DNA from: an uncultured Holophagae bacterium
Lineage (GTDB): Bacteria; Acidobacteriota; Thermoanaerobaculia; Thermoanaerobaculales; Sulfomarinibacteraceae
NCBI GenBank assembly: GCA_963797055.1
Contig: CAWCOD010000005.1
Location: 7,947-71,946, forward strand
Length of the DNA: 64,000 nucleotides
Direction of reading: 5' to 3'
Position 1 is the first letter of the stretch; each line of letters starts with the position of its first letter. Made by a program: the position numbers and the translations under genes. Positions 1 through 63,126 of the stretch are shown piece by piece. The notes below the pieces were generated by a model. It did not search any database and was not told the origin of the DNA. It saw only the letters and a program-made list of their open reading frames with translations.

Positions 1-39
1 GTTTAACGTGTAACGTTCAACTATTAACTCCCCACCCGC
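1..39. repeat. Heptamer tandem array (GTNTAAC x4) plus C-rich box TCCCCACCCGC
   Basis: Read directly: gtttaac gtgtaac gttcaac tattaac tccccacccgc. The same unit type recurs at 25076-25103 and 33792-33820. Confidence 0.7.
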
Positions 40-69
40 AACACTGACGACTCAACCAAGGAATCGCAA

Positions 70-1432
70 ATGAACGAAGTTGCCCAAAATCTCCTCGACC
101 GCATAGACAACCACGACGCCGAGGTCGGCATCATCGGAATGGGCTATGTCGGGCTTGCCGCTTGCCCTGGCCTTTGCGGAAAAAGGCTTCAAAGTCCTCG
201 GGTTCGATGTCGACGACACCAAAGTGGAGGCGCTCAAGCGGGGCGAGAGCTACATCAAGCACCTCAACCCCGATCGCGTGGCGAAAGCCGTTGATTCGGA
301 CCGGTTGTGGGCGACGTCGGATTTCACCCGAATCGGCGATCCTGATGCGATCCTGATCTGCGTTCCAACGCCGTTGACCCCTCAGCGCGAGCCCGACATG
401 ACCTACGTTCGCCGGGCGGCGTACCAGATCCGAGAGTATCTGCGGAGGGGTCAGCTCATCATTCTCGAGTCCACGACCTACCCGGGCACGACCGATGAAC
501 TCATTCTTCCCATTCTCGAGGGATCCCGGGAGGATCGGACTCAGGGCGAAGTCAGAATTGAAGGTTCAGAATTCAGAATTGGCCGAGACTTCTTTCTGGC
601 GTTCTCCCCCGAGCGCGAAGATCCGGGCAACGCGACCTTCGGCACCACGAATACTCCAAAGGTCGTCGGCGGAGTGGACGAAGTGTCGGGTGACCTCGCC
701 CAGGCCCTTTACGACCAGATCATGGACCGTACTGTTCGCGTCTCTTCGGCCCGCGCCGCCGAGGCCACCAAACTCATGGAGAACATCTTCCGGTCGGTGA
801 ACATCGCGCTGGTCAACGAGCTCAAGATGATCTGGGACCGGATGGACATCGACGTCTGGGAGGTGCTCGACGCCGCCGAGACCAAGCCCTTCGGATTCAT
901 GAGGTTCAACCCCGGCCCCGGCCTCGGAGGACACTGCATTCCCATCGATCCGTTCTACCTGGCGTGGAAGGCTCGTGAACACGGCGTGACAACAAAGTTC
1001 ATCGAGGTCGCCGGTGAAGTGAACATCCAGACCCCGGAGTACGTCATCGAGAAGTTGGTCCATGCGCTGAACGACCGACGCAAACCGGTCAGGGATTCCA
1101 AGATCCTCGTGCTTGGTCTTGCCTACAAGAAAGACATCGACGATCCGCGGGAGAGTCCGTCCTTCGAGATCATCGAGGCCCTGCTCCAGCTCGGCGCCGA
1201 CGTCAGCTACCACGACCCGTTGATTCCAACCGCGCCCAGTATGAGGAGCTGGCCGGACCTTCCCCCCATGCACTCGATCGATCTGGACACCGACCTCGGG
1301 CGTTTCGATGCCGCGGTGCTCGTCACCGACCACTCCGACGTGGACTACGACGCCCTCGCCGACGAGCTCGATCTCATCGTCGATACCCGCGGCATCTATC
1401 GCGCGCCACGACCAAACGTCGTGAAGGCGTGA
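70..1432 (+). pseudogene. Nucleotide-sugar dehydrogenase (UDP-N-acetyl-D-mannosamine/glucosamine dehydrogenase family), frameshifted near 157
   Basis: ORF 70..294 (frame 1) gives MNEVAQNLLDRIDNHDAEVGIIGMGYVGL, the Rossmann GxGxxG start. ORF 146..1432 (frame 2) continues PLALAFAEKGFKVLGFDVD and carries GGHCIPIDP and LGLAYKKDIDDPRESP. One extra base around 155-160 separates them. Confidence 0.85.
552..579 (+). repeat. Heptamer tract (TCAGAAT-type, 4 units) embedded in the dehydrogenase coding sequence
   Basis: tcagaat tgaaggt tcagaat tcagaat read directly. It encodes part of ...EVRIEGSEFRIG..., a locally AT-rich patch in a GC-rich gene. Confidence 0.6.
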
Positions 1433-1436
1433 CTGT

Positions 1437-1485
1437 GATTTCGAATTTCGAATTGCAGATTGCAGATTGCAGATTGCAGATTGAC
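1437..1485. repeat. Heptamer tandem array (GATTTCG/GATTGCA, 7 units)
   Basis: gatttcg aatttcg aattgca gattgca gattgca gattgca gattgac. It starts 5 nt after the dehydrogenase stop. Confidence 0.9.
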
Positions 1486-1525
1486 ATGATTGGTTTGTTT
1501 GGGACGATTGGTACATCTGAATATC

Positions 1526-1972
1526 ATGGTTGAGATCAAGAGGTTTGAAGATCTTGAAGTTTGGCAAGCGGCCCGAAAGCTGACGAACATGATCTATGAC
1601 GTTTCTGATGAAGGGCAGTTCGCTCGAGATTTCGGACTTCGCGACCAGATTCGCAGGGCTTCCGTGTCGGTCATGTCGAATATTGCGGAAGGGTTTGAAA
1701 GTCACACAACCAAACTGTTTATGAACTACCTGGGTCGAGCGAAAGGGTCAGCTGGTGAGGTAAGATCGCAGCTCTACGTAGCTCTCGACAGAGGATATGT
1801 CGATCGAGGTCCTTTTGAGGAATTGGCACGGCAGGCGTTAAATCTGAGTCGGCAAATCAGTGGATTTGCTGGATATCTCAAACACGCTGAAACGAAGTTC
1901 AAGATTCGCGAAAATCTCCCCTACTGCGACGAAAACTACGGTCTATCCTCAAGAGAACTTGAACGAAGTTGA
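1526..1972 (+). CDS. Four-helix-bundle protein (23S rRNA intervening-sequence protein family)
   Basis: MVEIKRFEDLEVWQAARKL...SNIAEGFES...GSAGEVRSQLYVA is the characteristic pattern of this family. The internal ATG at 1526 is preferred to 1490. The gene is visibly AT-richer than its neighbours. Confidence 0.85.
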   Translation: MVEIKRFEDLEVWQAARKLTNMIYDVSDEGQFARDFGLRDQIRRASVSVMSNIAEGFESHTTKLFMNYLGRAKGSAGEVRSQLYVALDRGYVDRGPFEELARQALNLSRQISGFAGYLKHAETKFKIRENLPYCDENYGLSSRELERS

Positions 1973-1995: not shown

Positions 1996-2030
1996 CAATC
2001 TGCAATTTGCAATCTGTAATCTGCAATCGA
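1996..2030. repeat. Heptamer tandem array (CAATCTG, 5 units), inverted relative to 1437-1485
   Basis: caatctg caatttg caatctg taatctg caatcga. The reverse complement tcgattgcagattacagattgcaaattgcagattg closely matches the upstream array. Confidence 0.9.
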
Positions 2031-4560: not shown

Positions 4561-6051
4561 TTGATTCCATCTCAAAGTCGCCCTGAGTCAATCGGGGCGA
4601 AGAGTGCAGTTGGGTTTGCGTGGTTGGGCGGAAGCCGGGTCGTATCACAGCTCATACACCTGGGGATAAGGGTGATCCTCGCGCGACTGCTGCTTCCCGC
4701 GGATTTTGGGACGGTCGCCGGTGCACTTGTATTTGTTTCCTTCACCCGTCTCTTCGTGGACCTGGGTGTAGGTTCGGCATTGGTTTGGGATCCTGAAGTT
4801 GATTCCACCAGCCGGTCGACAGCCTTTTGGTTTAATTGCATTCTGGGCTTGACGACCTTTGTTTTGTTGTTTCTTTCAGCCCCGTTGGCTGGCGTTTTCT
4901 TTCGAAACCCGGAGGTTACGCCGGTATTGAGGGTTCTTTCCATAGGTGTCGTGCTGTCAATCCCTCAGATGACGATGGCCTCGCTGCTTCAGCGAGATAT
5001 GGAGTTTCGTACCTTGGGGTCGACGAGGATCCTGGCCGCTGTACTGAGTGGCTGTGTGGGGGTTCTGGTAGCGGTGGCAGGTGGGGGTGTCTGGGCATTG
5101 GTTGTCGAGTCGCTTTCCAGGGCTGCAACCTCGTCCATACTCCTCGTCTTGGCGGCTGGGTGGCTGCCAAGAGCTGTCTTTGACCGAGATTCGCTGCGAC
5201 GCCTGTGGTCATTTGGCCGTCACATGACAGTGTCGAATTTATTGAACTATGGCATCAGGAATATTGACAACCTGTTGGTTGGCAGGTTCCTTGGCGCAAC
5301 GTCGCTCGGGTTTTACTCATTCGGTTATCAGGGGGTGACGCTTCCCCTGCAGTATCTGACCCGACCTTTAGCCAATGTGCTTTTTCCAGCTCTCATCAAG
5401 ATGCGAGACGACAGTGAGCGACTCATAAACGCCTACTTGACTTCTGTGGGTGCCGTAATTGTGTTCGCATGGCCTGTCTGTGGCTTGGTGGCGTTGCTCG
5501 CCCCAAGCCTTGTGCCGCCGGTTTTTGGTGAAAAGTGGATTCCAGGTGTGCCGGTGTTCATGATCCTGGCGATGGCGGCTCCGGTTCAGGTTACGCGTGT
5601 GGTGAATCACCAACTCCTGAAGGCTCTGGGAAAGCCCCGAGGGATCGTCTTTCAGCATGCTGTTGAGTTCATTCTGGTGCTTGCTGGCGTCTGGTTCGGA
5701 CTAAAAAACGGCGTCGTGGGGGTGGCGATCGGCGTCCTGATAGCAATGCTACTGAGCGTGCCGATTCACTCTCTGATCCTATCGCGGCTCTCCGGTGTTC
5801 CCTTGGCAAAATTGGTTTCCCCTCTCCTGCGGGGAACCGCCATCTTGACTGTGATCGCCGCACCCATGCTCCTTCTAAAATTCTCGGGAAACCTGCCTCT
5901 GGACCAGATGTGGCCGATGTTGGGGTTTACGGCGGTGGGTGCGGTTGTCTGGTTTTTCCTGTCGACGCAGGTCTTCCCAGAGGTGTGGAAAAGAGTCGCG
6001 ACAGTTTTAAGCCAGTTCATCCACTCGAAATCAAGATACAGACATCAGTGA
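4561..6051 (+). CDS. Wzx-like oligosaccharide flippase (MOP superfamily polysaccharide biosynthesis protein)
   Basis: 496-aa polytopic membrane protein with the typical flippase hydrophobic pattern. TTG start with GGAG 6 nt upstream. EPS-locus context. Confidence 0.8.
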   Translation: MIPSQSRPESIGAKSAVGFAWLGGSRVVSQLIHLGIRVILARLLLPADFGTVAGALVFVSFTRLFVDLGVGSALVWDPEVDSTSRSTAFWFNCILGLTTFVLLFLSAPLAGVFFRNPEVTPVLRVLSIGVVLSIPQMTMASLLQRDMEFRTLGSTRILAAVLSGCVGVLVAVAGGGVWALVVESLSRAATSSILLVLAAGWLPRAVFDRDSLRRLWSFGRHMTVSNLLNYGIRNIDNLLVGRFLGATSLGFYSFGYQGVTLPLQYLTRPLANVLFPALIKMRDDSERLINAYLTSVGAVIVFAWPVCGLVALLAPSLVPPVFGEKWIPGVPVFMILAMAAPVQVTRVVNHQLLKALGKPRGIVFQHAVEFILVLAGVWFGLKNGVVGVAIGVLIAMLLSVPIHSLILSRLSGVPLAKLVSPLLRGTAILTVIAAPMLLLKFSGNLPLDQMWPMLGFTAVGAVVWFFLSTQVFPEVWKRVATVLSQFIHSKSRYRHQ

Positions 6052-6343
6052 GTGGTTGAAGTGAAAGTCCCCAATGCCGCCGGGTTCGAAGCCCTGGTTT
6101 TAGTCCTATGGCCATGCCGTCAAGGCCTGGATTGGCTCAACCAAACAATCGGCTCTCCATGTGAAGCGCTTTGGCAACTCTGCGAGACCAGAGCGACCTG
6201 TTCATCACTGAGGTGCGGGACACCGAACGACGTATTTCTGACGAATGTGATTCCATTTTTCTTGACACGATACGGCATGTGTCGAGATCTGAAGAGCTTT
6301 CAATGGGCTGACCGCGCCCTATGACCCTTCAATTGGAGTAGAA

Positions 6344-7048
6344 ATGATGGTAGAAACACCTCCAAGTTTCATCGTAGTTGGGGCCATGAAGTCCGGCACC
6401 ACTTCATTGTACAAGTGGTTATCTGGACATTCAGGTTGTTGTTTTTGTCGACTCAAAGAACCCCACTTCTTCTCCATAAATTGGGATCGTGGAATCGATT
6501 GGTATCGTGGACTATTTTCAGAATGCCCAAATCAACAAATTTCAGGCGAGGCGTCGCAAAGCTACACCGACCCTAGCTGGTGCGATGAGGCGGCAGACAG
6601 AATTTCTCAGGTGGTTCCGGATACAAAAATCATGTATATCCTCAGAAATCCCATAGCGCGATCACGGTCCCAGTACCGCCATGAGGTGAGAGCGTCTCGC
6701 GAGCGGCGGGAGTATTTGACAGCGATTGCGGACGGGTCGAGCGGATACCTGCAAAGAAGTATGTACTGGTCCTGCCTGAATCCGTTTGTTGAGAGATTCG
6801 ATAGAAGTCGTCGTCGGATCCTGGTTCTTAGGTTTGAAGACCTGGTATCGGATTCGGATGAAACGTGGGTTGAGCTTTTGAATTTCCTCGGTCTTCCGGT
6901 GGAAAGACGTTGTCATCATGTGCACCGTCGAACCGAGACAGTGCCTGGGAGGGGAAAAATTTTGCCACGCCTGAACGCGTTGGGTTCGAAGAAAATCACC
7001 AGATATGTGCCCAATTCCATCAAGGATCTGATCCCACCGTGTTCCTAG
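6344..7048 (+). CDS. Sulfotransferase family protein
   Basis: PAPS-binding motifs VVGAMKSGTTSLYKWL (5'-PSB) and ILRNPIARSRSQY (3'-PB). GGAG RBS. AT-richer than the flanking DNA. Confidence 0.85.
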   Translation: MMVETPPSFIVVGAMKSGTTSLYKWLSGHSGCCFCRLKEPHFFSINWDRGIDWYRGLFSECPNQQISGEASQSYTDPSWCDEAADRISQVVPDTKIMYILRNPIARSRSQYRHEVRASRERREYLTAIADGSSGYLQRSMYWSCLNPFVERFDRSRRRILVLRFEDLVSDSDETWVELLNFLGLPVERRCHHVHRRTETVPGRGKILPRLNALGSKKITRYVPNSIKDLIPPCS

Positions 7049-7497
7049 ATAGTGGCCGGCGGTACGGGATGTTGATGGAGTATTCTAAAGCAGAGGTTTC
7101 AAAGGGGTTGCAGGATCCGGTTTGGGAGGATGTCACCAAACTCGAAAAATGGCTGGGCGTCAGCCAGTTATGGAGCCGGTAAGAGATTCATGACCAAACA
7201 TGGGAAGAAGATCCACCATCATCATGGAGTTCTAGGTCGATAGGGTCCCCGTGATTTTTCGTCAAATACGTCCTCGATGAACAGGATTTTCGGAGGGGAA
7301 TTCCTACGTTCGAAAGAGCCTCTTTTTTTGAAGCAATAAATTGATCTGTGATTGTCATGAATTTGGTCGTAAATAGAGAAGTAAACCGTAAGTATTTTTG
7401 TGACGTGGTTGAGGTAGTCAAAATGCGGAAAACTTTGATTTGGCAACGAACCGAAATGTCGCAAGTCGGTGTGAAATAGAACGAGACGCGATTAGAC

Positions 7498-8669
7498 ATG
7501 AATATTTTGCACTGTATCGATACGATGGCGAGTGGCGGAGCGGAAATACAGATGGCAAGAAATGTCTCAAATATTGAAGGAAAAAATTTCAGAAATATTG
7601 TATGTATTTTCCACGGTCCAGAAACCGAAGCGGCAATTCTAAAGAGAACAGTATTCCTGTCATTAATCTCGATTTAACTGAAAATATATTAGGAGCTTGG
7701 TCGGGATGTCTTGAAGTCCGAAGAGTCATCAAGGACAAGAAGATTGACCTAGTCCATACCGACGGTTTTTGGGGAAATCTCGTGGGGAGGTTTTCTGCAA
7801 AGACCTTGAGAGTCCCGGTGGTGTCCACCTGTGGGAATACGGTGAGTCTGAAAGATCGATTTCGTGCAAGTCCGAGTGTCCTTCGATGGAAGCTGAGGCT
7901 GGTGTGGTTGTACTCCGCCTTCACGGCAAGACATTTTGTCGACCGCCATGTTGCGATTTCAGAAGCGGTCAAGGAGTCGCTGGTCCATCACTGGAGGGTC
8001 GCGGAGGATCGGATTGAGGTCGTCTACCGTGGAGTGTCCTTGTACGAAATTCCCCGCGAAAATGGGTCGTCGAGAGAGGTGGACGATCTCGGTCAGTTTG
8101 GGTTTGAGGGCGGATCTCCTTTCTTGGTGACGGTGGGGAGGCTGGTGCCGCAGAAGGGACATGACCGGTTACTTGATGCGATGGGGATCTTGGCGAGGCA
8201 TTACCCCGAATTTCGACTGTTGATTATCGGCGAAGGGAGGGAACGCCTCTCTCTTGAAAAGAAGTACGAGAATCTAGGCTTAGGAGACAACGTCTCCCTG
8301 GTAGGCCATCGTGAGGACGTAGGACGGTTTTTGGTCGAAGCTGACGTCTTCGTGTTTTCGTCTTACTACGAAGGATTCGGCACAGCTGTGGTAGAGGCGA
8401 TGGCGGCGGGCCTGCCAGTGGTGGCCTTTCCTAATGGCCCGGCGGAGGAAATCGTGGTTGACGGAGAGACCGGAATTCTCGTCGAAGATGGAACTCCGGC
8501 AGCCATGGCAGAAGCGATCTCGAAAATCATCGGGGATCCGGAGCTAGGGAAACAGATGGGTTGCAAAGGGGAAAGACGAGCGTCCTTGATGTTCGACTCG
8601 AATTCCGTCGCTGACCAGATGGCAAGGGTCTTCGTGTCGGTCCTAGGGAAAAGGGGGAGGGCGGCGTGA
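7498..8669 (+). pseudogene. Glycosyltransferase family 4, frameshifted near 7650
   Basis: Frame 1 from 7498 gives MNILHCIDTMASGGAEIQMARNV..., a GT4 N-terminus of 59 codons that is below the ORF-track cut-off. ORF 7602..8669 (frame 3) carries the rest, including YYEGFGTAVVEAMAAGLPVVAF and ETGILVE. Confidence 0.8.
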
Positions 8670-11803: not shown

Positions 11804-12974
11804 AGAGCGCACCATCTGACTCCCAGGGCGGGGGGTTGGAGGTTTTCCACCTGATCAAGGGATTGGGTCGGGGTGGGGCGGAGATGCTCCTGCCATCACT
11901 GATCCGGAGTGGCGGAGCGGAGCTTCAAATATTCGGTCGGGTACTTCCTTCCCTGGAAGGATGCACTGGTGCCCGAGCTGCAGGGCATGGGTGTTCAGGT
12001 CGAACGATTCACAGCCCGTGGTCCGGCTGGGATGATCGCCCGGGTGCCCGGCATCGCACGATTTCTTCGGCGAAACCGCGTTGATCTCGTCCACGCCCAT
12101 TTGCCGCTGGCCGGGGTGGTGGGGCGGCTGGCTGGCCGGATCGCCGGCGTGCCGGTCGTCTACACCGAGCACAACCTCCAGGAACGCTATCACCCATTGA
12201 CGAGAGGGTTGAACTCCAAAACCTGGAGCCTGCAGAGCGCTGTCGTGGCGGTGTCAGGCGAGGTGGAGGAGTCCGCGAGACGGCGGAACGGCTCGGTGGT
12301 GCCGATTCACGTGGTTCGGAACGGGATCGAAATTCCCCCGGTCGACAGCAGTCGCATCCTCCGGAAGAGGTGTCCGCGGCGAATTGGGGATCATGCCCGA
12401 CACTCCGGTGGTGGGCACCGTTGCCGTGTTCCGGACGCAGAAGCGACTGGATCGTTGGCTCGAAGCGGCCGCCGCGGTCAGACAGAGTGTGCCGGACGTG
12501 CACTTCCTGCTGGTTGGAGACGGCCCGGTCCGCCCCGAGCTCGAACGGCTGGCCGGCTCGCTTGGAATTTCCGACAGAGTGCACTTCGCCGGGCTCACGG
12601 ACGATGTTCCTCCCTACCTCGCCGCCATGGACATCTATCTCATGTCCTCCGAGTTCGAGGGCCTGCCGTTGGCCCTCCTGGAGGCCATGGCCGCCGGTCT
12701 CCCGGTTGCGGCCACCGCGGTCGGTGGCATCCCGGAGGTGATCGATAGCGATGCCGCAGGGATGCTGGTGGAGCCGGGCGACGTCGCCGGCCTCGCCGCG
12801 GCGACGGTTCGGCTGCTCGAGGACCGCGCGGTCGCCGGTTCGATCGGAGCAACCGGCCGTGAGCTGGTGGAGGAGAAATTCGGGGTCGAGCGGATGGCGC
12901 GCGAGCTCGAGGATCATGTACCTCGAGGTGGCGGGCCCGTCACGGGTCGGGTGATATGGAGATACGGCGCGTGA
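11797..12974 (+). pseudogene. Glycosyltransferase family 4, two frameshifts (near 11910 and 12370)
   Basis: ORF pieces in frames 1, 2 and 3 read through as one GT4: VFHLIKGLGRGGAEMLL / VDLVHAHLPLAGVVGRL / SEFEGLPLALLEAMAAGLPVAATAVGGIPEV. Confidence 0.8.
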
Positions 12975-49261: not shown

Positions 49262-49330
49262 CGGTGCCAGGCACCGTCGAAATCGTAATGGAGCACGAGA
49301 TAGCGGCATTTGCGGCGGTGCCTGGCACCG
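49262..49330 (+). repeat. Palindrome-terminated ~70-nt element, copy 2 of 3
   Basis: cggtgccaggcaccgtcgaaatcgtaatggagcacgagatagcggcatttgcggcggtgcctggcaccgccatg. It is preceded by gatcgggcgtgcc at 49221 and ends 22 nt before ATG 49353. Confidence 0.9.
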
Positions 49331-49352
49331 CCATGTAGAATCGACCACTACG

Positions 49353-50549
49353 ATGGAAGCTCCCCTGAATATTCTGATCGTCGCGACCAAACCACCGTGG
49401 CCGCCGGTGGATGGCGGCAGGGTAGTCATGCTCCAGACCATCGACGCGTTGGCGGCAGCCGGTCACCGCGTGACGGTGGTGAGCCCATCCGATCCCGGCG
49501 TCGACGACGACGAGGTGCGACGACAGTTGTCTGACAGGTGCCGGTCTGTACTCGTCCCTGACCGGCCCCGCAGCGTGTGGCGTGTACTCGCGACCTCCAT
49601 ACTCGGTCGTCGTCCGGTGACCGTGGTCCGGCACGAGCTCGAGGGGGTCCGACGTCGGGTGACCGGGTTGGTGGCCGAGGAGCGCTTCGATGTGGTGCAG
49701 GCCGAGCAGGTGCAGGCCATACCTCAGGCCCAACCGGCAATCGCGCGCCGTATCCCGCTGGTCTTCCGGGCCCACAACGTGGAGAGCGCGTTGTGGACCT
49801 TCGCTGCGGCATTCGGACGTCCGCTGACGGCGGGTCTCCTCCGACGGGAGGCCAGGCGTCTCACGTTGTGGGAGCAAAAGGCGGTCCAGCAGGCTGCGGC
49901 GACGGTGGTGTTGACCGACGTCGATCTGGCTCCCTTACGACGGACTGCGGGCAACGGGCCGTTGATCGAGAAGGTCCCGGTGCCCTATCCCGAGGATCTG
50001 TCAGCCGGAGAGATGCCGCTGGAGGGTCATCCGGCGGTTGTCACCCTGGCGAGCCAGACGTGGCTTCCAAGCAGAGAGACGGCTCGACAGGTGGCCGAAG
50101 TTTGGTGGCCGGTGGTTCGCGAGCGTTTGCCCGACGCCGTCCTCCACGTCTTCGGTGGCGGCCCCGAGAGTGATGAGTGCAACGGCGTGCGCCTCCACCC
50201 ACCACCGGAGGAGAGTGTTCAAGCATTCGCCGCCGGTGCGATTGTGGCGATCCCGACCCGCCACCCCACGGGTGTGCCGGTGAAGGGGCTGGAAGCCTGG
50301 TCGAGAGGTCTGCCGCTGGTGGTGTCCTCAGAGACGGCGCGCGCCCTGGAGGGTGCTGACGGGGTCGATCTGTTGGTGGCCGACGGTCCCGAAGCGTTCG
50401 CGGCGAAGCTGGCGGAGCTGGCCGATGACGCCGAGCTGTGGGGTCGCCTGGTGGCTGGTGGCAGAAGACGGCTGCTCTCGCACCATGATCCGAAACTCAT
50501 CGCAGAGCAGCTCACCGAACTTTATAGGCGAGTGAGGTCTCGGTCTTGA
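49353..50549 (+). CDS. Glycosyltransferase family 4/1 (GT-B)
   Basis: LNILIVATKPPWPPVDGGRVVMLQTIDALAAAGHRVTVVSP. GT-B C-terminal half ...AIPTRHPTGVPVKGLEAWSRGLPLVVSS. Confidence 0.8.
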   Translation: MEAPLNILIVATKPPWPPVDGGRVVMLQTIDALAAAGHRVTVVSPSDPGVDDDEVRRQLSDRCRSVLVPDRPRSVWRVLATSILGRRPVTVVRHELEGVRRRVTGLVAEERFDVVQAEQVQAIPQAQPAIARRIPLVFRAHNVESALWTFAAAFGRPLTAGLLRREARRLTLWEQKAVQQAAATVVLTDVDLAPLRRTAGNGPLIEKVPVPYPEDLSAGEMPLEGHPAVVTLASQTWLPSRETARQVAEVWWPVVRERLPDAVLHVFGGGPESDECNGVRLHPPPEESVQAFAAGAIVAIPTRHPTGVPVKGLEAWSRGLPLVVSSETARALEGADGVDLLVADGPEAFAAKLAELADDAELWGRLVAGGRRRLLSHHDPKLIAEQLTELYRRVRSRS

Positions 50550-50582
50550 ATTTTGAATTTTGATTTCCGCCCCCCACCCGGT
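50545..50582. repeat. Heptamer array (TTGAATT type) plus C-box
   Basis: cttgaat tttgaat tttgatt tcc / gccccccacccgg. It overlaps the GT stop codon (50547-50549). Confidence 0.85.
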
Positions 50583-50632
50583 GCGCGCGATGATCGGGCG
50601 TGCCTTTCGAGCGGGTTCCGAACGCGCTCACC

Positions 50633-50705
50633 CGGTGCCAGGCACCGTCGAAATCGCAGCGAAGCACGAGATCGGTTCATTTGCGGCGGTGCCTGGCACC
50701 GACAT
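50633..50705 (+). repeat. Palindrome-terminated ~70-nt element, copy 3 of 3
   Basis: cggtgccaggcaccgtcgaaatcgcagcgaagcacgagatcggttcatttgcggcggtgcctggcaccgacatg. It is preceded by gatcgggcgtgcc at 50591. Confidence 0.9.
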
Positions 50706-50712
50706 GGAGGAT

Positions 50713-51654: not shown

Positions 51655-51686
51655 AACAGGTGGACCATTGTAGCTCGGGGCTCGGG

Positions 51687-51724
51687 ATTCGAATTTCGAA
51701 TTTCGAATTTCGAATTTTGAATTC
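51687..51724. repeat. Heptamer tandem array (ATTTCGA x5) followed by a C-rich/G-rich box region to about 51810
   Basis: gattcga atttcga atttcga atttcga attttga attc, then ccccacctccacaccc...ccctccacaccgggaggttgggaggggg. It is preceded by ggggctcggga, as at 54338. Confidence 0.9.
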
Positions 51725-51829
51725 TACGAACCCCACCTCCACACCCTCTACGCTTTCTAAACCTCCTGCACCTTCTTTACCCTCCACACCGGGAGGTTGG
51801 GAGGGGGTTCCCGTGCTAGACTCCCGCCG

Positions 51830-52663
51830 ATGTCCACACCCGCCGTACCGGTTCTGCGCAATTCAGCCAGGCAGACCCTGAATCCCATCCTCGAGGTTCG
51901 CGACCTATTCGCCAATTGGAACCTCATCGCGAACCTGGTGCGACGTGACCTGACGGTGCGCTACAAGCGGTCCGTCATCGGCTTCTTCTGGACCATGCTG
52001 AACCCGCTCCTGTTGATGATCATCCTCACCGTGGTCTTCTCCACCGTTTTCCGGTTCGAGGGGATCAAGAACTACCCGACCTATTTCCTCTCGGCGTACC
52101 TGGTCTTCGGGTTCTTTTCCCAGACCACCGTGCAGTCCATGACCTCCCTGGGTTTTCACGGGTCGTTGATGAAGCGGGTGCGGGTGCCCAAGTCCATCTT
52201 CGCGGTGTCCACCACCATATCGGGGCTGATCAATCTCTGTCTGGCCTATGTCCCGCTTTTCCTCATCATGATCGTCACCGGGGCGCCGATACGGCCCACG
52301 GTGCTCTTCCTGCCCATCAGCTTCCTGATCATCGCCGCCTTCACCCTCGGGGTCTCCCTGATGCTGTCGGCGCTCGCGGTCTATTTCGACGACGTGTCCC
52401 ACATGTACCAGGTGGCCACCGTCGGGCTGATGTACATGACCCCGATCATCTATCCCATCTCCATCGTGCCCTACCGCTGGCTGTGGCTCATTCGCATCAA
52501 TCCCCTCACCCAACTCTTCAAGCTGGCGCGCGATCCGGTCTATAGCGGCACCCTGCCCGGAGCCCATGTGATCATGGCTTCGGTGGGCGCTGCCTCGATC
52601 GCGCTGGTGGTGGGTTGGTTGGTCTTTCACCGGCTCGCCCGCGGCTTCTACCTGCATCTGTGA
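51830..52663 (+). CDS. ABC-2 type polysaccharide export permease (Wzm/TagG/KpsM-like)
   Basis: NWNLIANLVRRDLTVRYKRSVIGFFWTMLNPLLLMIILTVVF plus six TM segments. Confidence 0.9.
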   Translation: MSTPAVPVLRNSARQTLNPILEVRDLFANWNLIANLVRRDLTVRYKRSVIGFFWTMLNPLLLMIILTVVFSTVFRFEGIKNYPTYFLSAYLVFGFFSQTTVQSMTSLGFHGSLMKRVRVPKSIFAVSTTISGLINLCLAYVPLFLIMIVTGAPIRPTVLFLPISFLIIAAFTLGVSLMLSALAVYFDDVSHMYQVATVGLMYMTPIIYPISIVPYRWLWLIRINPLTQLFKLARDPVYSGTLPGAHVIMASVGAASIALVVGWLVFHRLARGFYLHL

Positions 52664-54323: not shown

Positions 54324-54352
54324 CCCGGGACTCGGCACGCGGGGCTCGGGAC

Positions 54353-54411
54353 TCGTAATTTGTAATTTGTAATTTGAAATTTGTAATCCGTAATGGCCGG
54401 GTCGGGTGGGG
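54353..54411. repeat. Heptamer array (TGTAATT, 6 units) plus G-box
   Basis: cgtaatt tgtaatt tgtaatt tgaaatt tgtaatc cgtaatg / gccgggtcgggtggggg. Confidence 0.9.
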
Positions 54412-54412
54412 G

Positions 54413-57121
54413 TTATTGGACGTACCCGAGAGCCCGGAGTTGATCGAGCACCTCGATATCGGCCTGGGGAGCGGTAGGCGCTGTATCTTGAGCGCCGCCC
54501 TCCCACCAGAGTATGAAGCCGGTTGCCGGTGGAGCAGATGGATTGTCCACCTCCCGCCAGCCTTCAGCGGCAAGTTCGAAGGCCGCGGGCGTGTCCAGTT
54601 CGTCGAGATCGAACCACCGGGCCAGCGGGAGGGCCTTGCGCCCGTCGCCGAGAACCATGTGGAGGTTGACGCCGGCTCGATTCCGGTCCGGGGAGTCCAG
54701 CAACAGCACCAACTCCTCGCCCTGCGGTACCTCGAAAGTGGGTGGTACGTCGTTCCTCCAGCGGACGTTGGCGTCTCCCGCGGAGGCGCTCTTGAGCCGG
54801 TCGTGGGCTGCGAGGGCCCCGCGGAGCCTGCCCTTCATGAGATCGGAGGAGCTGTTTCGGATGATCAAACGGACGCCCCGTTGTTGATCGACCAGGGCGG
54901 CCCTGGTCCGTTCCATGAGTTCGGTGGTCTCGGCCGCACCGGCCGAAAGGTCGGTGGTCTCCTTTGGATCACGGCGCAGATCGATCAGCCGCTGACGGCC
55001 GTACAACTGCTCCCATGCGGTGTCGTTGAAGGTGTATTTGAGACGACTGTCCAACCTGAGGGCGAGCCCGCGGTTTGACGAGGCGGCATAGGTCCAGGCT
55101 GCCGCAGGGACCCGTGACGGTTCGCCAGCCATCAGATGGAGCAATGACAGGCCGTCTGACGACGCCGGGGCGGGCGCACCAGTGGCCTCAATGATCGTTG
55201 GCGCGAGATCCACCAGCCGGACTTGTCGGGAAACACGGCGCCCCGCTCCGACGTGTCCCGGAAGCCGGATGATCAAGGGCACCAGTGTGTTGTAGTCCTC
55301 GAGGTAGGAGTGGCCGGCCCGGTCGTCTTCGCCGAGGGCCTCGCCATGATCCGAGGTGATCACCACCACCGTATTGGCGGCCAGTCCCAGCTCCTCGAGC
55401 CGGTCGAGCAGCTGCCCGACCGCATCATCGGCGTAGGCGACCGCACTGTCGTACATCAGGCTCACGAGTTCCTTCTCAGAGGGGTTCAGGGGACTCTGCC
55501 ACCGGTCGTCCCCGGGTCGTTGCGCCACGAAGTAGTCCCCCGGCGCGCGCAGCCCGTGCCACCCGTGAGACTCCATTGAGATGCGGCTTTTCGGGAGGGT
55601 GCCGAGGTCTCGACCGGCGAGCTGGTCGAACCAGGGCTGGCGCCGGCGGTGAGGAAAGTGGATTTCGTAGGTGTGGAAGAAAAGGAAGAACGGCCGGCCC
55701 CGCTGATGCTCCAGCCAGGCCAGCGCGTCGGATAGACCGGTCGCGAGTTCGGCCTTGGAATCGTCGTCCTTCCAGTAGCGGAAGGTGTCGAAGCCCCGGT
55801 CCAATCCGAACTGCGGTCTGAGGTAGCCTCCGCCGGTGATCGCCGCGGTGGAGTAACCGGCCCCGCGAAGCTGCTCGGCCAGCAGATCGAGGTCGGCGGG
55901 CACGCGGCGGTAATGGTTGACGCCGTGGCGCACAGCGTCGAGTCCGGTGAACATGGATACGTGCGACGGGAGCGTCCAGGGTGAGGTTGCCACCACCGTC
56001 TCGAAGACCGTGGCCTCGTTCGCCGCCCATCGGTCGATGCGGGGACTGGTCGACCGACGCCAGCCGTAGCTCGACAGATGGTCGGCACGAAGGGTGTCCA
56101 GGCAGACAAGGAGAACGTTCGGGAGATCGGGGGGCGGTCCTCCGATGATCTCCGGGTTGGACCACATGGGCAGGCCGTGGACCGCCCGGTATCCCTCTCC
56201 GCTTTGGGTTACCAGCCGAAGTGTGATCTGCTGGTCCTCGAATTCATCGAGCCGGACTGTGGCGTCGTGCCACCGCGCAGCCTCGCCGAGACGGGGATCG
56301 AGTTTGGCGAAGAAGACGCGCTGGGGTCTGTCGCCGGCCCTTTCGGCGAAGACCTCGAACCGCACCGACTCGGTGATGCCGTGCTGGAGGGCATAGCCGA
56401 ATTGGAGTAGGGCTCCGGCTGGGACACGAAGTTCTCGCTCGTGGTCCCGGCCCGGCGGAGCCAGAAGGACGGTGCGCGATTCGCGGTCCAGGTCGACTCT
56501 CCAGGCCGTTTCGACGGCATCCGCTAACCGGTCGGATCTGGGCAACCGCCGTGTCCCCACGACGGTGGCGATGCCCACCGGAGCGCCGGCCGCAGCGATG
56601 GGCTCGAGACGGATCCTGGAAATTCGTCCGGTCCACTTCGGGTGTGGATGGAGGTCGAAGACAAAGGTCTTCAGGTTGTCGCCCACCGTCTGGCCGCTTT
56701 CGATGACCACGGATCTGTCGTCTGAGAACCACCCGAAGGGGCCGGCCCACCGGAGGGCCACGTCTCCGGCGTGAAGGCCGGCGATGGTCACCGAGATCTG
56801 GTCCAGTGAGGTTGCGTCCATCGCCAGGTCGCGGTCCATCCGTGGCTCGTCGCCGGACGGAAGCAACCGAAGCCGTCCGCCCTCCACCGGTTCACCGTGG
56901 AGGTCGTGCAGCCGCCACGACCGTCGATCATCGGCGTCCGCGAAGGTCCACCGAAAGACCTCCTCCGACTCGTAGAGATCATCGGACTGCAGATCTTCGA
57001 TCGAGGCGTGATCGATCCACCGGAGGACAATGGCGCCGGTGATTGGCGAGATCTCGGTGTCGGCGCACGCGGCGAGCCCGATGGAGAGCAGGGAGAGACA
57101 GATCAGGGAGCCGTTGCGCAT
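54413..57121 (-). CDS. Sulfatase-like (alkaline-phosphatase superfamily) lipoprotein with large N- and C-terminal extensions
   Basis: Lipoprotein signal MRNGSLICLSLLSIGLAAC. Sulfatase-fold core NVLLVCLDTLRADHLSSYGW...ATSPWTLPSHVSMFTG...VVITSDHGE. The ORF upstream of Met 57121 runs into the heptamer array. Confidence 0.8.
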   Translation of the reverse strand: MRNGSLICLSLLSIGLAACADTEISPITGAIVLRWIDHASIEDLQSDDLYESEEVFRWTFADADDRRSWRLHDLHGEPVEGGRLRLLPSGDEPRMDRDLAMDATSLDQISVTIAGLHAGDVALRWAGPFGWFSDDRSVVIESGQTVGDNLKTFVFDLHPHPKWTGRISRIRLEPIAAAGAPVGIATVVGTRRLPRSDRLADAVETAWRVDLDRESRTVLLAPPGRDHERELRVPAGALLQFGYALQHGITESVRFEVFAERAGDRPQRVFFAKLDPRLGEAARWHDATVRLDEFEDQQITLRLVTQSGEGYRAVHGLPMWSNPEIIGGPPPDLPNVLLVCLDTLRADHLSSYGWRRSTSPRIDRWAANEATVFETVVATSPWTLPSHVSMFTGLDAVRHGVNHYRRVPADLDLLAEQLRGAGYSTAAITGGGYLRPQFGLDRGFDTFRYWKDDDSKAELATGLSDALAWLEHQRGRPFFLFFHTYEIHFPHRRRQPWFDQLAGRDLGTLPKSRISMESHGWHGLRAPGDYFVAQRPGDDRWQSPLNPSEKELVSLMYDSAVAYADDAVGQLLDRLEELGLAANTVVVITSDHGEALGEDDRAGHSYLEDYNTLVPLIIRLPGHVGAGRRVSRQVRLVDLAPTIIEATGAPAPASSDGLSLLHLMAGEPSRVPAAAWTYAASSNRGLALRLDSRLKYTFNDTAWEQLYGRQRLIDLRRDPKETTDLSAGAAETTELMERTRAALVDQQRGVRLIIRNSSSDLMKGRLRGALAAHDRLKSASAGDANVRWRNDVPPTFEVPQGEELVLLLDSPDRNRAGVNLHMVLGDGRKALPLARWFDLDELDTPAAFELAAEGWREVDNPSAPPATGFILWWEGGAQDTAPTAPQADIEVLDQLRALGYVQ

Positions 57122-57193
57122 GTGGGATTCTATCTCGCCCGGGCTGATCCCGCGCCCCATCGAGAGGACGGGTGACGCCGATATTGCCATGTG

Positions 57194-57233
57194 CATTTTC
57201 GAATTTCGAATTTCGAATTTCGCATTCGGTGAA
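57194..57233. repeat. Heptamer tandem array (AATTTCG x4-5)
   Basis: cattttcg aatttcg aatttcg aatttcg cattcgg. It lies in a divergent intergenic region. Confidence 0.9.
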
Positions 57234-60354: not shown

Positions 60355-60412
60355 TGGGTCGATGGTGAGGAGTTGGTAGTTGCTCGCGGCTGAAGGCCGC
60401 GGCGACTCCCCG

Positions 60413-60458
60413 GGAATTCGAATTGCGTATTGCGAATTTCACCTCCCACCCAGTCCCA
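60413..60458. repeat. Heptamer array (GAATTGC type) plus C-box
   Basis: ggaattc gaattgc gtattgc gaatttc / cctcccacccagtccc. It is preceded by the small hairpin cgcggc-tgaag-gccgcg (60386-60402). Confidence 0.8.
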
Positions 60459-60645
60459 TGATCTCCTCCGAATTCCGACTCCCGAGTTCCGAATCCCGAA
60501 ACTGAGATCTTTGACAATGCGTTCACAATCGGCGAGTCGAGGTGTGATCTAAGCTACTTCTTCTCAAACGTGTCCGAAATACAGTGGTTCTGGGGACTTT
60601 GAGTACAAGAGCCGGAGTCCGGCCGACTTTCTCTGGAGGCATCTG

Positions 60646-63084
60646 TTGATTTGGAGGACACTGTCAGCGGCGGTCGTGGTCTTTGCCATGGCGCTTCCCG
60701 CCTCGGCGCAGGCGATCATCGAGGTGCCGACGGGGGTTGCGACCCTCAGTCAGGCACTGAGCCAGGTGCCGGACGGGGGGATCATCGTATTGGCGGCGGG
60801 AAGCTATCAATCGCCGTCGGGCGGGTTCATCATCTCCAACCCGAATCGGAGTTTCACCGTTCGTGCGGCCAGCGGCGCCTCGGTGACGCTGACCGGCGGG
60901 GGTTCCAGCCCGGTGCTCCGGTTCATCAACTCGGCTCCTGATCCTCAGGCCACCGTGATCTTCGAGAACCTGGTATTCGCAAACGGCCGGTCGGCGCTCA
61001 ATGGAGCCGCCGGTGGCGTCACCCTCGAAGCCGCATCAGCGACCTTCAGGAACTGTCTCTTCCGCGACAACACTTCGGTGGCGTCGATCACCGGCGGTGG
61101 CGGCACCGCCGTGTTCATCGATTCCGTGGCCCACTTCACCGACTGCGAGTGGCGGGACAACACCGCCGACAACGAGGGGGCGGGTCTTCGGGTTGGCGAG
61201 GGCTCGAAGGCCTATGTTCATCGGGGCCTGTTCACCGACAATCGGGCGAACCTGTCCGGACACCGACCCTCCGCCGCCGGAGGCGGCATCCACATCACCA
61301 ACTCCGAGGTGTGGGTGACAAACAGTCGATTCGACGGCAACCAGACCGGTTATGCAGGCGGAGCCATCTACGTCCTCGGCACGTGGCAGTCGCCCTTCAC
61401 AACACCGCGGGCCGAGCTGGTCGTCGCCAACTGCACTTTCGTCGACAACGAGGCAACTCCTCACTTTGCGGTCACTCCACCGGCACCGACCGAGGGTGGA
61501 GCCATTCACTCCGAGGACCAGGCCAGAGTCGAGATCATCAATTCCAGGTTCGTCGCCAATCAAGCCGATCTTGGGGGTGGTGTGAGCTCTTACCGGAGTG
61601 AGGTCGGCGTATCGAGCTCGGTTTTCCTCGGCAACCGTGCCGTGGGGGTTGGAGCCAGCACCGGTTTCGGCGGGGCGTTCAAGATCACCTCCGACGACAG
61701 CCACCTGGACGGACCGAACTACCCGAACGGTAGCCTCGTCCTCGAGGATTCCTTTGTCCAGTGTCGATATGGATCCACCACCACCGCGGCCCAGGTTGCC
61801 GCCGGCCTGTTCGCCAAGGGTGACGTGTGCCGCAACTACGGCAACGGCGGGTGTGACGAGCTCGGGACCGATGCTGCGAATCGCTGTGTGGTGGATGTTG
61901 ACAACGTGGTCTTTGCAGACTGTGATGTGGACCAGGGCGGGGTGGCAAATCAGGGCCTTGGTGGAGCGATGAGCGTCGCACTGACCTCTCTTACCCTGAC
62001 CGACTCGTTGGTCGTAGCCTCCAACGCCACCGGGAACGGTGCATCGGGGGGTGGCTTGCGAGTCGTCATCGAGTCGGACGCCGTGGTGGATCGCACGACC
62101 CTTGCCGGAAACACCGCCGTGCAATTCGGAGCTGCGGTCTTTGCCCAGGGGACGGCGATCGATTTCTCCGACTGCCAGTTCTTCGACAACGAGATCAGCC
62201 CGGGGGTGAACGAGTCCGAGGTTTCGAGCTTTGGAGCGGCTTTTTTTGTTGCACCCCTGGAAAATTGGGGCGTTGACCAGTTGGATTTTCCGGTCACAGG
62301 AGTTGTGGACAACTCGATTCTCAGCCGCAACGTGGGCATGCCGATATTTGACGACGATCGGAACCCCCAACCCATCAACGCCGTGCGGTACAACAACAAC
62401 GATTTTCACAACACGACCTTCGGTTCGAAGGTCTATCGCCACAACACGGCTCAATCCAAGACGCCTGCGGAACTTAACGCGCTGGTGATCTCCCACAGCG
62501 GTGTCGACAAGGGGACCGGCAACAGTTGGCTGTCCAACCCTCCCGAACTCGGTGCCCTCCGCGCCGTTCCACACCGGATTCTCAACGTCACCGCGGTCGG
62601 CGACCCGGAGTCTGTGACCAGGTCATACGTTGGCTATGCCTGGGACGGCGGAAATGCGACCCTCGATGGATCGCCTGTGAGCGGTGGTTATGGATGGGGA
62701 CCCACCTCCGCGGGGACCCACAACCTGTGGGTGCAGGGCACCCAATTCCAGGCAACCGTCGGTGTCGGTCCGACGCCGGCGGTGAGTTTCACCGCGACGC
62801 CGGAGATTTCCACACCGGGTCAGCCGGTCACGCTGTCGTGGTCGCTGGTATCGGGGACCTTCGTAGATGTCGAGATCGATCACGGTTTGAACCCGAGTGG
62901 CACGGCGTCCGGGCAGCTTGTCGTGACGCCGTCGGTCACGACCACCTACTCACTGCACATGCTCACCGAGGAGGGCGGAGCGACCGCAACGGCCACGGTC
63001 TGTATCAACTGCGAGAGCCCGCTGTTCTCCGATGGATTCGAGTCGGGTGATATTTCCGTCTGGTCTACCGCGGTGGTCGACTAG
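60646..63084 (+). CDS. Secreted right-handed beta-helix protein with Pmp-type (GGAI / FxxN) repeats
   Basis: Signal peptide MIWRTLSAAVVVFAMALPASAQA. Repeated GGA(I/V/F)... F(R/T/V/L)(D/G/A)N(T/R/Q/E) units (FRDNTS, FTDNRA, FDGNQT, FVDNEA, FVANQA, FLGNRA, GGAIYV, GGAIHS). The C-terminal tail is LFSDGFESGDISVWSTAVVD. Confidence 0.8.
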   Translation: MIWRTLSAAVVVFAMALPASAQAIIEVPTGVATLSQALSQVPDGGIIVLAAGSYQSPSGGFIISNPNRSFTVRAASGASVTLTGGGSSPVLRFINSAPDPQATVIFENLVFANGRSALNGAAGGVTLEAASATFRNCLFRDNTSVASITGGGGTAVFIDSVAHFTDCEWRDNTADNEGAGLRVGEGSKAYVHRGLFTDNRANLSGHRPSAAGGGIHITNSEVWVTNSRFDGNQTGYAGGAIYVLGTWQSPFTTPRAELVVANCTFVDNEATPHFAVTPPAPTEGGAIHSEDQARVEIINSRFVANQADLGGGVSSYRSEVGVSSSVFLGNRAVGVGASTGFGGAFKITSDDSHLDGPNYPNGSLVLEDSFVQCRYGSTTTAAQVAAGLFAKGDVCRNYGNGGCDELGTDAANRCVVDVDNVVFADCDVDQGGVANQGLGGAMSVALTSLTLTDSLVVASNATGNGASGGGLRVVIESDAVVDRTTLAGNTAVQFGAAVFAQGTAIDFSDCQFFDNEISPGVNESEVSSFGAAFFVAPLENWGVDQLDFPVTGVVDNSILSRNVGMPIFDDDRNPQPINAVRYNNNDFHNTTFGSKVYRHNTAQSKTPAELNALVISHSGVDKGTGNSWLSNPPELGALRAVPHRILNVTAVGDPESVTRSYVGYAWDGGNATLDGSPVSGGYGWGPTSAGTHNLWVQGTQFQATVGVGPTPAVSFTATPEISTPGQPVTLSWSLVSGTFVDVEIDHGLNPSGTASGQLVVTPSVTTTYSLHMLTEEGGATATATVCINCESPLFSDGFESGDISVWSTAVVD

Positions 63085-63088
63085 AAAG

Positions 63089-63126
63089 TCAGTAAATAGT
63101 GAATAGTGAATAGTGAATAGTGGATA
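63089..63126. repeat. Heptamer tandem array (ATAGTGA x4-5)
   Basis: tcagtaa atagtga atagtga atagtga atagtgg ataacc. Same unit class as 45125-45159 and, inverted, 31022-31050. Confidence 0.9.

Follow-up and report, generated by a model that had tools for sequence, protein, structure and literature searches.

Tandem arrays of seven-nucleotide units in intergenic DNA are known from several groups of bacteria. Heptameric simple sequence repeats (SSRs) are over-represented in many of them, and one survey takes the literature back to 1990 (Mazel) and 2007 (Mrazek) (PMC4692102). The short tandemly repeated repetitive (STRR) sequences of Calothrix and Nostoc and the GGGAATC repeats of Xanthomonas are intergenic and recur between corresponding genes of related species, where their length and sequence differ; polymerase slippage has been proposed to explain the excess of heptamer SSRs (PMC4692102). 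TAACTGA repeats occur in Beggiatoaceae, Cyanobacteria and Bacteroidetes (MacGregor 2015, PMC4679880). In Coxiella burnetii, the intervening sequence (IVS) of the 23S rRNA carries three tandem GACAGAT heptamers ahead of its S23p open reading frame (ORF); the copy number is 2 or 3 between strains, and the RNase III site is at the first heptamer repeat (Warrier et al. 2016, PMC4990558). Heptamer arrays are described here in a 64,000-nucleotide stretch of DNA (the window) from an uncultured Holophagae bacterium (contig CAWCOD010000005.1). No published report of heptamer arrays in its phylum, Acidobacteriota, was found.

By every structural criterion save host and unit sequence, the arrays of the window are STRR-type heptanucleotide SSRs. 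They are built of 7-nt tandem units of multiple dispersed sequences, are confined to non-coding DNA and vary between relatives. STRR sequences and long SSRs likewise have tandem 7-nt units in several unrelated families, 2-10+ copies, an intergenic position, frequent inverted pairs and a proposed origin by slippage (PMC4692102). The host differs, being an acidobacterial (Holophagae-like) lineage with 62-68% G+C and not a heterocystous cyanobacterium, and the units are not STRR1-3. Most are A+T-rich (TTCGAAT, GATTGCA, AGTGAAT, AATTCGC) and some are G+C-rich (CGGGACT); the arrays cover about 10% of intergenic bases, and a sister lineage has hexamers. A preliminary description of the window, made from the sequence alone, had likened the arrays to cyanobacterial STRR repeats, and this comparison holds: as in cyanobacteria and Xanthomonas, they are tandem heptanucleotides of many unit families restricted to intergenic DNA. 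Its further statement that the combination was not a described element was too strong, given the record of intergenic heptamer over-representation since 1990 and 2007 (PMC4692102).

The individual systems differ from the window in more specific ways. The Xanthomonas GGGAATC and Nostoc GGGGAYT arrays are also intergenic, mostly of about four units and in part inverted pairs (Rehm et al. 2015, PMC4692102), and the CGGGACT and CCGAATC units of the window resemble GGGAATC. However, Xanthomonas and Nostoc have one dominant G-rich, quadruplex-prone unit, whereas here there are dozens, mostly A+T-rich and devoid of quadruplex potential (PMC4692102). TAACTGA repeats are similarly abundant intergenic heptamer direct repeats, of 2-6 copies and common to distant phyla, but they represent a single oriented unit a few nucleotides upstream of start codons, while the present units are many, unoriented and found on both sides of genes (PMC4679880).

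On balance, and with moderate confidence, the arrays are taken to be heptanucleotide SSRs of the STRR or long-SSR kind that slippage reshapes in A+T-rich spacers, with single arrays mostly tolerated and inverted pairs acting as RNA stems. The first support is the specificity of the period. Tandem Repeats Finder gave about 30 period-7 rows in the window. An independent lag-match scan found 10 period-7 arrays of at least 3 copies, and no more than 1 for any of the other periods between 4 and 12. In its 8.4 kb of intergenic DNA the window contained 17 arrays, while 200 shuffles that preserved dinucleotide composition averaged 0.02 and never exceeded 1; at least 15 distinct unit sequences were present across 17 gaps. 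Both the scans and the shuffles thus bear out the earlier claim of a constant 7-nt period amid differing units. All 25 sites listed at that time do carry a period-7 stretch, their A+T content being 44-88% compared with 37% in coding DNA; their length is 1.7-10.3 units and not the 4-11 reported.

A wider count was obtained from syntenic loci. The genes of the window form a cluster for the biosynthesis and export of polysaccharide, and a glycosyltransferase query led to syntenic loci in metagenome-assembled genomes (MAGs) labelled 'uncultured Holophagae bacterium'; additional loci were taken from ENA and JGI assemblies. A cyanobacterial (Gloeobacter) source of the window was discarded once these Holophagae relatives were known. 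The closest, L001, is collinear with positions 39.3-60.5 kb of the window at 71-94% protein identity. The main count set comprised the window and six related loci (L001, L004, L005, L007, L008, L010) from five related assemblies, 189 kb in all with curated gene maps, divided into 26 kb intergenic and 163 kb coding DNA. Maps based on third-position G+C (GC3) and codon usage proved unreliable in places, and homology-supported maps were used; the total lineage DNA surveyed was about 250 kb, for which the gene maps were partly our own. In the count set, 87 period-7 arrays were intergenic and 1 was coding, other periods from 4 to 12 giving 0-5. The seven loci hold 37 unit families, the commonest being TTCGAAT, AATTCCG, AATTCGC, AGTGAAT and AACTAAG. 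The arrays are present in all six related loci, from independent assemblies, and are therefore a lineage trait and not an artefact.

The same description had placed all but one array outside coding sequence. The intergenic location stands, and the exception is also non-coding. The composite array at 38430-38501 appeared to be coding because the amidase gene (ORF 37564-38523) is frameshifted in the assembly; relative to homologues it has several frameshifts, and the homologous C-terminus ends at a TGA at 38411-38413, upstream of the array. Arrays were further said to mark nearly every operon boundary. This applies between 24.6 and 63 kb, where about 17 gaps bear arrays; beyond the two at 1.4-2.0 kb, several true non-coding gaps at 4-24 kb are free of any array, and the claim fails for 2-24.6 kb.

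An (AATTCGC)x4.4 array (24610-24640) begins 9 nt past the stop of gene 23387-24601, and it is followed by GTTACAC GTTACAC GTTTAAC TTTCAAC (25076-25105), (CGAAATT)x3.4 (30980-31004), (CTATTCA)x3.7 (31021-31046), about five (GATTGCA)-type units (33584-33623, plus strand), CGTTCAA CGTGTAA CGTTGAA CGTCAAA (33790-33817) and (ATTGCAG)x3.6 (35106-35130). Further along lie (TTCGAAT)x4.3 (41939-41968), (TTGAATT)x2.6 (50546-50563), which overlaps the stop of gene 49353-50549, (TTTCGAA)x4.3 (57197-57226), which occupies a whole divergent gap, (GAATTGC)x3.7 with (CCGAATC/CCGAATT)x4.7 and a C-rich box between them (60414-60500), and (AGTGAAT)x5.1 (63091-63126), 7 nt past the stop of gene 60646-63084. At the other end, GTTTAAC GTGTAAC GTTCAAC (1-21), of the ACGTTNA family, is cut by the window edge. 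Octamer arrays accompany the heptamers as a minority class, at 38889-38918 of the window ((CATAGCCC)x3.8) and at 2946, 9932, 16258, 16435 and 16586 of L010; their units are CATAGCCC, AAGTAGAG, TCTCTACT and CCTCAGGA.

Heptamer arrays of this type are not limited to the Holophagae-like lineage. An exact (TTCGAAT)4 occurs in at least 120 metagenome contigs of 30-70% G+C, and the 700 kb of these contigs listed hold 311 period-7 arrays compared with at most 18 at any other period. Many listed contigs have several different units (L116 has 14 arrays of 12 units), so multi-unit heptamer arrays are widespread.

The second support comes from turnover between relatives. Orthologous gaps of the window and L001 are both array-bearing, with different units and copy numbers. 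A common unit with a different copy number is found for TTCGAAT (window 57197 and L001 17805; 51688 and 12313) and for AGTGAAT (45122 and 5580), while at window positions 54355 and 60414 the units themselves differ. Whole arrays may also be absent. The one gap shared with L009, which is 97% identical in the adjacent ABC permease, is a 70-nt divergent gap with no array and no C tract that retains both -10-like boxes. L007 has a 32-nt convergent gap where other loci have 90-180 nt with arrays, and the L015-L020 lineage (81% identity) has no arrays. The variation in unit number and in presence or absence that the earlier description proposed to look for in orthologous gaps is found in L001, L007, L009 and L015-L020.

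In the same syntenic gaps, L002, L003 and L011-L014 carry hexamer arrays, mainly CGGGAA, of up to 20 copies. These sister relatives have 72-74% G+C, and their taxon labels conflict between MAG sources (Thermoanaerobaculales in one, Holophagae in another). The strain pairs L011/L012 and L013/L014 are 99.6% identical; over 20.8 kb, the strains differ by no internal indels other than a single CGGGAA unit and an 18-nt (3 x 6) block, both within hexamer arrays. Slippage-type polymorphism is thus demonstrated directly in the hexamer lineage. Slipped-strand copy-number variation, for which a test had been proposed earlier, is accordingly supported by the differences between relatives and by the whole-unit indels between hexamer strains.

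The internal structure of the arrays points in the same direction. The composite array at 38430-38501 (about 10 units of AATTACG, GATTGCA and AATTACA type; plus strand) lies downstream of the amidase stop and is a series of blocks that differ by one substitution (AATTACG, AATTGCA, GATTGCA, GATTACA, AATTACA), which is the expected signature of slippage combined with point mutation. Elsewhere, G+C-rich heptamers (CGGGACT, CTCGGGG) abut A+T-rich ones. Thus, CTCGGGG CTCGGGA precedes (TTCGAAT)x5.1 in the divergent gap at 51673-51723, and (CGGGACT)x4.3 abuts (GTAATTT)x5.7 at 54326-54394.

In about one quarter of array clusters, two arrays in inverted orientation enclose a G+C-rich core. Single arrays are unstructured in folding, while the inverted modules fold far better than shuffles. 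At 45122-45202, (AGTGAAT)n and (ATTCACT)n enclose a 23-nt core (z -4.1 for 45087-45208). At 45947-46052, (AATTCTC)n and (AATTCAA)n enclose a core with a CCACCCGGGCGGGTGG palindrome (z -4.1 for 45940-46077). At 33691-33790, a degenerate GAATTNN array and its inverted counterpart flank a C-rich/G-rich core with a G box at 33746-33762 (z -2.9 for 33670-33800). Miniature inverted-repeat transposable elements (MITEs) were considered for these array-core-array modules and rejected, because neither different loci nor orthologues have cores that can be aligned.

Under the favoured interpretation, slipped-strand mispairing would create, expand, contract and replace arrays in the A+T-rich spacers of one Holophagae-like lineage, and unequal exchange probably also contributes to their turnover. 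Most single arrays would have no sequence-specific job and would persist as tolerated spacer DNA. The subset with an array, a G+C-rich core and an inverted array would fold into long hairpins once transcribed. By analogy with the Coxiella IVS, these double-stranded RNA stems may be cut by RNase III or may shield mRNA ends, and one of these two roles is likely for the inverted pairs.

Several points weigh against this interpretation. Slippage alone does not account for a period of 7 here as against 6 in the sister lineage. The spacers remain 100-300 nt long and array-rich across 10-40% protein divergence despite the deletion bias of bacteria. Polymorphism between strains could be demonstrated for the hexamer sister lineage only. 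RNase III processing and hairpin function are proposed by analogy only, and exact copy numbers may be slightly wrong on account of the assembly frameshifts. Finally, the invariable association with PF05635 genes hints at a biology more specific than neutral slippage.

This association starts from the ORF at 1526-1972 (plus strand), located between sugar dehydrogenase and Wzz genes. It belongs to PF05635 (23S rRNA IVS protein or S23p, an Avd-like four-helix bundle; Pfam E 2.6e-32), and its closest solved structure is Xanthomonas XCC0516 (PDB 2GSC, E 4.9e-12). The left arm of the cassette consists of (ATTTCGA)x2.4 and (ATTGCAG)x4.6 (1438-1483, plus strand) and the right arm of inverted (CAATCTG)x4.7 (1996-2028, plus strand). 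The predicted stem, formed by (ATTGCAG)4.6 and the inverted (CAATCTG)4.7, is about 31 bp with the ORF in its loop (z -3.4). The cassette (1438-2028) thus has the IVS-type ORF and the inverted-repeat stem of a 23S rRNA IVS. It is not inserted in helix 25 or 45 of 23S rRNA, and the Rfam scan of the window found tRNA but no rRNA. The Coxiella IVS is alike in having a PF05635 ORF in the loop of an inverted-repeat stem and heptamers in the arm, with a strain-variable copy number in Coxiella (Warrier et al. 2016, PMC4990558). It differs in lying within 23S rRNA, whereas the window cassette lies between protein-coding genes and both of its arms are whole heptamer arrays (PMC4990558).

The same architecture of array, core and inverted array, which resembles 23S rRNA intervening sequences, brackets every PF05635 gene examined but one. 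All 18 genes examined lie between short-period arrays (7 nt, occasionally 8 nt), inverted in 17; the direct case is a Pseudanabaena gene between cas6 and cas4. Most of the 18 come from array-rich genomes, and one gene is without Pfam confirmation. Their hosts span Acidobacteriota, Chloroflexi, Cyanobacteria, Bacteroidota and unassigned metagenome contigs. Besides the window gene, seven are from array-selected contigs (L089, two in L103 of which one is frameshifted, L111, L116, two in L132), two were chosen by homology, blind to repeats, and eight are from finished plasmids (L150-L157) of Nostoc, Calothrix, Aulosira, Pseudanabaena, Picosynechococcus and Riemerella. The first homology-chosen gene, of Kouleothrix sp. 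(Chloroflexi; L141/L142), is bordered by ACGTTGGC octamers, about 17 in number, and by ACGTTCNA octamers in inverted orientation; the second (L143-L149) has GTTGAAC-type heptamers in its flanks. The ACGTTNA unit family seen at 1-21 of the window also flanks PF05635 genes in L103, L141 and L143. Some PF05635 cassettes are wedged in otherwise tight operons (L154, L155, L153, L141), at the sites ribonucleotide reductase beta/alpha, cas10/cmr3, cas6/cas4 and ABC-2 permease/Wzt ATPase.

The inverted flanks were quantified as the number of 7-mers common to the upstream flank and the reverse complement of the downstream flank, with a cut-off of at least 5; RNA duplex energy between flanks was uninformative in G+C-rich DNA, and the shared 7-mer counts were used in its place. 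Of the first 10 PF05635 genes, 7 reached the cut-off, as did 62 of 724 control ORFs taken from these loci (Fisher p 4.6e-6); among the 8 plasmid genes, 6 reached it. The top-scoring controls include genes for RAYTs, the transposases associated with repetitive extragenic palindromic (REP) sequences, that are flanked by such sequences, which validates the measure.

From these data arises the strongest competitor of the slippage interpretation, in which the arrays are the arms or footprints of an IVS-like element family. Its autonomous form would carry PF05635, the protein would bind or act on array RNA or DNA, and ORF-less pairs and solo arrays would be decayed or non-autonomous. The constant position of PF05635 genes between arrays and the excess of inverted 7-mers speak for it, as do about seven PF05635 genes among the listed 700 kb of contigs picked solely for (TTCGAAT)4. 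Among 72,556 plasmids, PF05635 homologues were found only in cyanobacteria and Riemerella, taxa with known heptamer repeats. In addition, tandem heptamers precede the S23p ORF of the Coxiella IVS (PMC4990558), and a 4-unit GGGAATC array overlaps the start of XCC0516, the gene of the 2GSC structure, in Rehm's catalogue (PMC4692102). Nevertheless, the window contains about 30 arrays but a single PF05635 gene, and no gene of this family is present in 125 kb of related Holophagae loci. The cores of ORF-less inverted modules do not align with each other, the cassettes have dissimilar units, and among inverted pairs spaced 300-550 nt apart some enclose no PF05635 gene. Most cases are from genomes so rich in arrays that any gene inserted there would probably adjoin them. 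We also know of no mobility enzyme for PF05635. Such an element family is therefore regarded as a rather unlikely source of the arrays.

A broader form of this idea, put forward with the same reserve and likewise thought improbable as things stand, is that arrays of heptamers (and of 6- and 8-nt units) and PF05635 genes form one widespread system. The cassettes would be IVS-like hairpins with heptamer stems, the pentameric PF05635 protein would recognise the arrays or act on them, and cassettes or their ORF-less derivatives would seed arrays in Holophagae, cyanobacteria (STRR), Bacteroidota, Chloroflexi, Xanthomonas and Coxiella.

Less probable still is that the arrays with their C-rich boxes are selected boundary elements of transcription units, such as terminators, 3'-end stabilisers, insulators or promoter elements of the UP type. 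The arrays do sit at gene boundaries, are retained at orthologous gaps across relatives and are A+T-rich islands in a 63% G+C genome. Yet they are found in 9 of 20 gaps between tandem plus-strand genes and 12 of 25 between tandem minus-strand genes, in 15 of 20 convergent gaps and in 12 of 19 divergent gaps, the latter two classes being about equally array-bearing. Their presence in gaps of every orientation means that they are not dedicated terminators. No canonical terminators coincide with arrays, sites that resemble an intrinsic terminator (a G+C-rich stem-loop followed by a U tract) being no more frequent there than by chance, and consensus scans at arrays gave no excess of terminators or sigma-70 promoters over shuffles. 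A dedicated role in termination is thus unsupported. Furthermore, unit orientation on the sense strand of tandem gaps had no consistent bias relative to transcription; a weak C>G skew there is not robust, since the repeats cannot be counted as independent of one another. Arrays are also dispensable at orthologous sites of close relatives, and the unit sequence is not conserved.

Some arrays lie just upstream of conserved -10-like boxes, which would fit a promoter-linked boundary role. An array of (GATTACA/CCGATTA)x3.9 (41779-41805), for example, is just upstream of the -10-like TATACT of gene 41153-41755 (minus strand). The -10-like hexamers of the window are at 45093-45098 and 51667-51672 (reverse complement TACAAT in both), about 51817-51822 (TAGACT) and about 41764-41769 (reverse complement TATACT). 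They are conserved at orthologous sites in L001, L004, L007, L008 and L009 and precede start codons by 7-12 nt, and neither a clear -35 element nor a clear Shine-Dalgarno sequence accompanies them, which suggests leaderless or near-leaderless mRNAs in the Holophagae-like lineage.

A boundary role could also be sought in the C-rich boxes, which are often C-rich in the mRNA sense straight after stop codons and pair with G boxes. Such boxes are found directly past the stops of the histidine-kinase gene 35148-35882 (minus strand; box 35130-35148, minus strand) and of the sulfatase gene 54413-57196 (minus strand; box 54399-54412, minus strand, conserved in L001), as well as at 42062-42074, and post-stop C-rich boxes also occur in the orthologues of L001, L004, L005 and L007. 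The box consensus reported earlier is real in that CCCCCRCCCACCYGG with at most 2 mismatches has 7 matches in the window against 2.3 expected, 6 of them intergenic beside arrays, but its link to the arrays was overstated. Under a looser definition, 10 or more C (or G) in 13 bases, 43% of boxes fall in the 13% of sequence that is intergenic. A C/G-rich box lies within 40 nt of 6 of 18 arrays in the window, 22 of 70 in relatives and 37 of 130 in G+C-rich metagenome contigs. Contrary to the claim that most arrays abut a box, the proportion is only about one third. Boxes within 40 nt of arrays number 6 against 1.0 expected from the whole sequence in the window, 24 against 5.3 in the Holophagae relatives and 29 against 7.5 in the metagenome contigs. 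This 4-6 fold excess over the whole-sequence expectation falls to about 1.4-2 fold, by our estimate, over an intergenic-only expectation, and most of the enrichment arises because both features are intergenic.

The boxes are separate small G+C hairpins or half-hairpins that co-occupy the array spacers. C boxes are frequently paired with a complementary G box to give a G+C-rich hairpin, sometimes enclosing an array. A G-quadruplex reading was considered; by inspection, most G boxes have just three G-runs. C-rich, G-poor tracts of CCACACCT-like repeats of about 8 nt, usually followed by a complementary G box, are seen at 41899-41923 and 51725-51790 of the window and at 12340-12380 and 14975-14998 of L001. 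The first belongs to an imperfect hairpin (41899-41937) in which TCCACACCT repeats precede the G box CCGGGTGGGTGGGGG; the second leads to the G box GGTTGGGAGGGGG (tract and box 51725-51807, plus strand), upstream of the -10-like TAGACT of gene 51830-52663. Isolated boxes include CTCCCCACCCGC (29-40, plus strand) and CCCCCGCCCGCCCGG (38870-38884, minus strand).

Two modules shared between gaps had been singled out in the preliminary description. GATCGGGCGTG does occur exactly three times, at 33652, 49220 and 50592, and GGGGCTCGGGA exactly twice, at 51677 and 54341, each 1-3 nt from the position first given. The GGGGCTCGGGA 'module' is a G+C-rich heptamer array. GATCGGGCGTG is the 3' arm of a C-box hairpin, here named module A (33624, 38501, 50566). 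Its copies are the C-box CCCCCCGCCCACCTGG with the GATCGGGCGTG arm (33624-33662), the hairpin CCCGCCCA...TGGGCGGG (38501-38545) and the C-box CCGCCCCCCACCCGG with GATCGGGCGTG, which begins at 50566. Module B is a near-perfect 80-nt hairpin repeat, CGGTGCCAGGCACCG...CGGTGCCTGGCACCG, at 38686-38766, 49261-49341 and 50632-50712. At two sites the GATCGGGCGTG hairpin is followed by module B in fixed order: at 49220-49341, which has no heptamer array, and at 50566-50712. All copies are on the plus strand. Module B has no family in Rfam, a permissive search giving generic miRNA-hairpin noise only, and both modules are missing from the orthologous gaps of L001.

Modules A and B represent a small REP-like (or MITE-like) mosaic. 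The likeness to enterobacterial bacterial interspersed mosaic elements (BIMEs) suggested earlier therefore applies to this minor component, the C-box hairpin and the 80-nt CGGTGCCAGGCACCG hairpin, as intergenic modular mosaics of small palindromes, and to nothing else in the window; the two hairpins recur 3-4 times in a constant order, which is seen at 3 sites. The arrays themselves are tandem direct repeats and not palindromes, the modules are not shared with the closest relative, and tblastn detected no RAYT gene in the window or nine related loci (about 250 kb searched). A RAYT-driven REP origin of the arrays was rejected, as the RAYT-like Y1 transposase genes of two metagenome contigs (L043 645-1316; L085 867-1571) are flanked by ordinary REP palindromes and not by arrays, although both contigs bear a TTCGAAT array elsewhere. 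A further palindromic repeat, unlike these, ATTGTGGTGCGGGC...GCCGCACCACAAT, occurs in L005 (1504-2099 and 5256-5500), in L007 (1-248) and in other gaps of relatives; in L005 it forms about five tandem copies of a unit of about 118 nt.

A role of the arrays as contingency loci, in which changes of array length would alter promoter spacing or leaders and switch polysaccharide and surface genes by phase variation, is very improbable. The polysaccharide content of the window, the several arrays in divergent promoter gaps and the differing unit numbers between relatives would agree with it. On the other hand, arrays are equally frequent past stop codons and in convergent gaps, they also stand beside unrelated genes such as those for cytochrome oxidase and a P-type ATPase in L008, and heptamer length variation within a population is undocumented. 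An assembly or sequencing artefact, which the frameshifts typical of long-read consensus errors might suggest, has a negligible chance of being the explanation and is already refuted: at least six independent assemblies, produced by different projects (ENA, NCBI, JGI), have arrays at orthologous positions, (TTCGAAT)4 occurs in at least 120 metagenome contigs, and finished cyanobacterial and Riemerella plasmids bear similar arrays.

The window has some further features. The AAA-ATPase gene is split in two at 43616-45098 where relatives have a single 490-aa ORF; this gene and the frameshifted amidase gene are either pseudogenes or products of long-read consensus indel errors. The gene at 39695-41008 (minus strand) contains seven repeats of about 205 nt (39464-40756). 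A tRNA-Gly(CCC) at 32871-32946 (minus strand) is the sole Rfam or ARAGORN match in the window, Rfam at gathering thresholds giving nothing else. A low-G+C island at 6000-8000 (48% vs 62%) with poorly defined ORFs, within the polysaccharide cluster, may be a horizontally acquired O-antigen-type segment.

To our knowledge, neither the cause of the 7-nt period of intergenic heptamer repeats nor any function for them has been established. STRR-type heptamer SSRs were known already; the window adds a new phylum-level host, Acidobacteriota, with a very high density of arrays, about 10% of intergenic bases, and the association of PF05635 genes with arrays across several phyla. Furthermore, the heptamer, hexamer and array-free sister lineages provide a natural comparison set within one syntenic gene cluster. 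If arrays and PF05635 genes were indeed one system, this would account for both the 7-nt period and the purpose of the IVS proteins. The PF05635 lead in this way joins two features that lack an explanation, the heptamer repeats and the IVS/S23p proteins, and opens both to testing.

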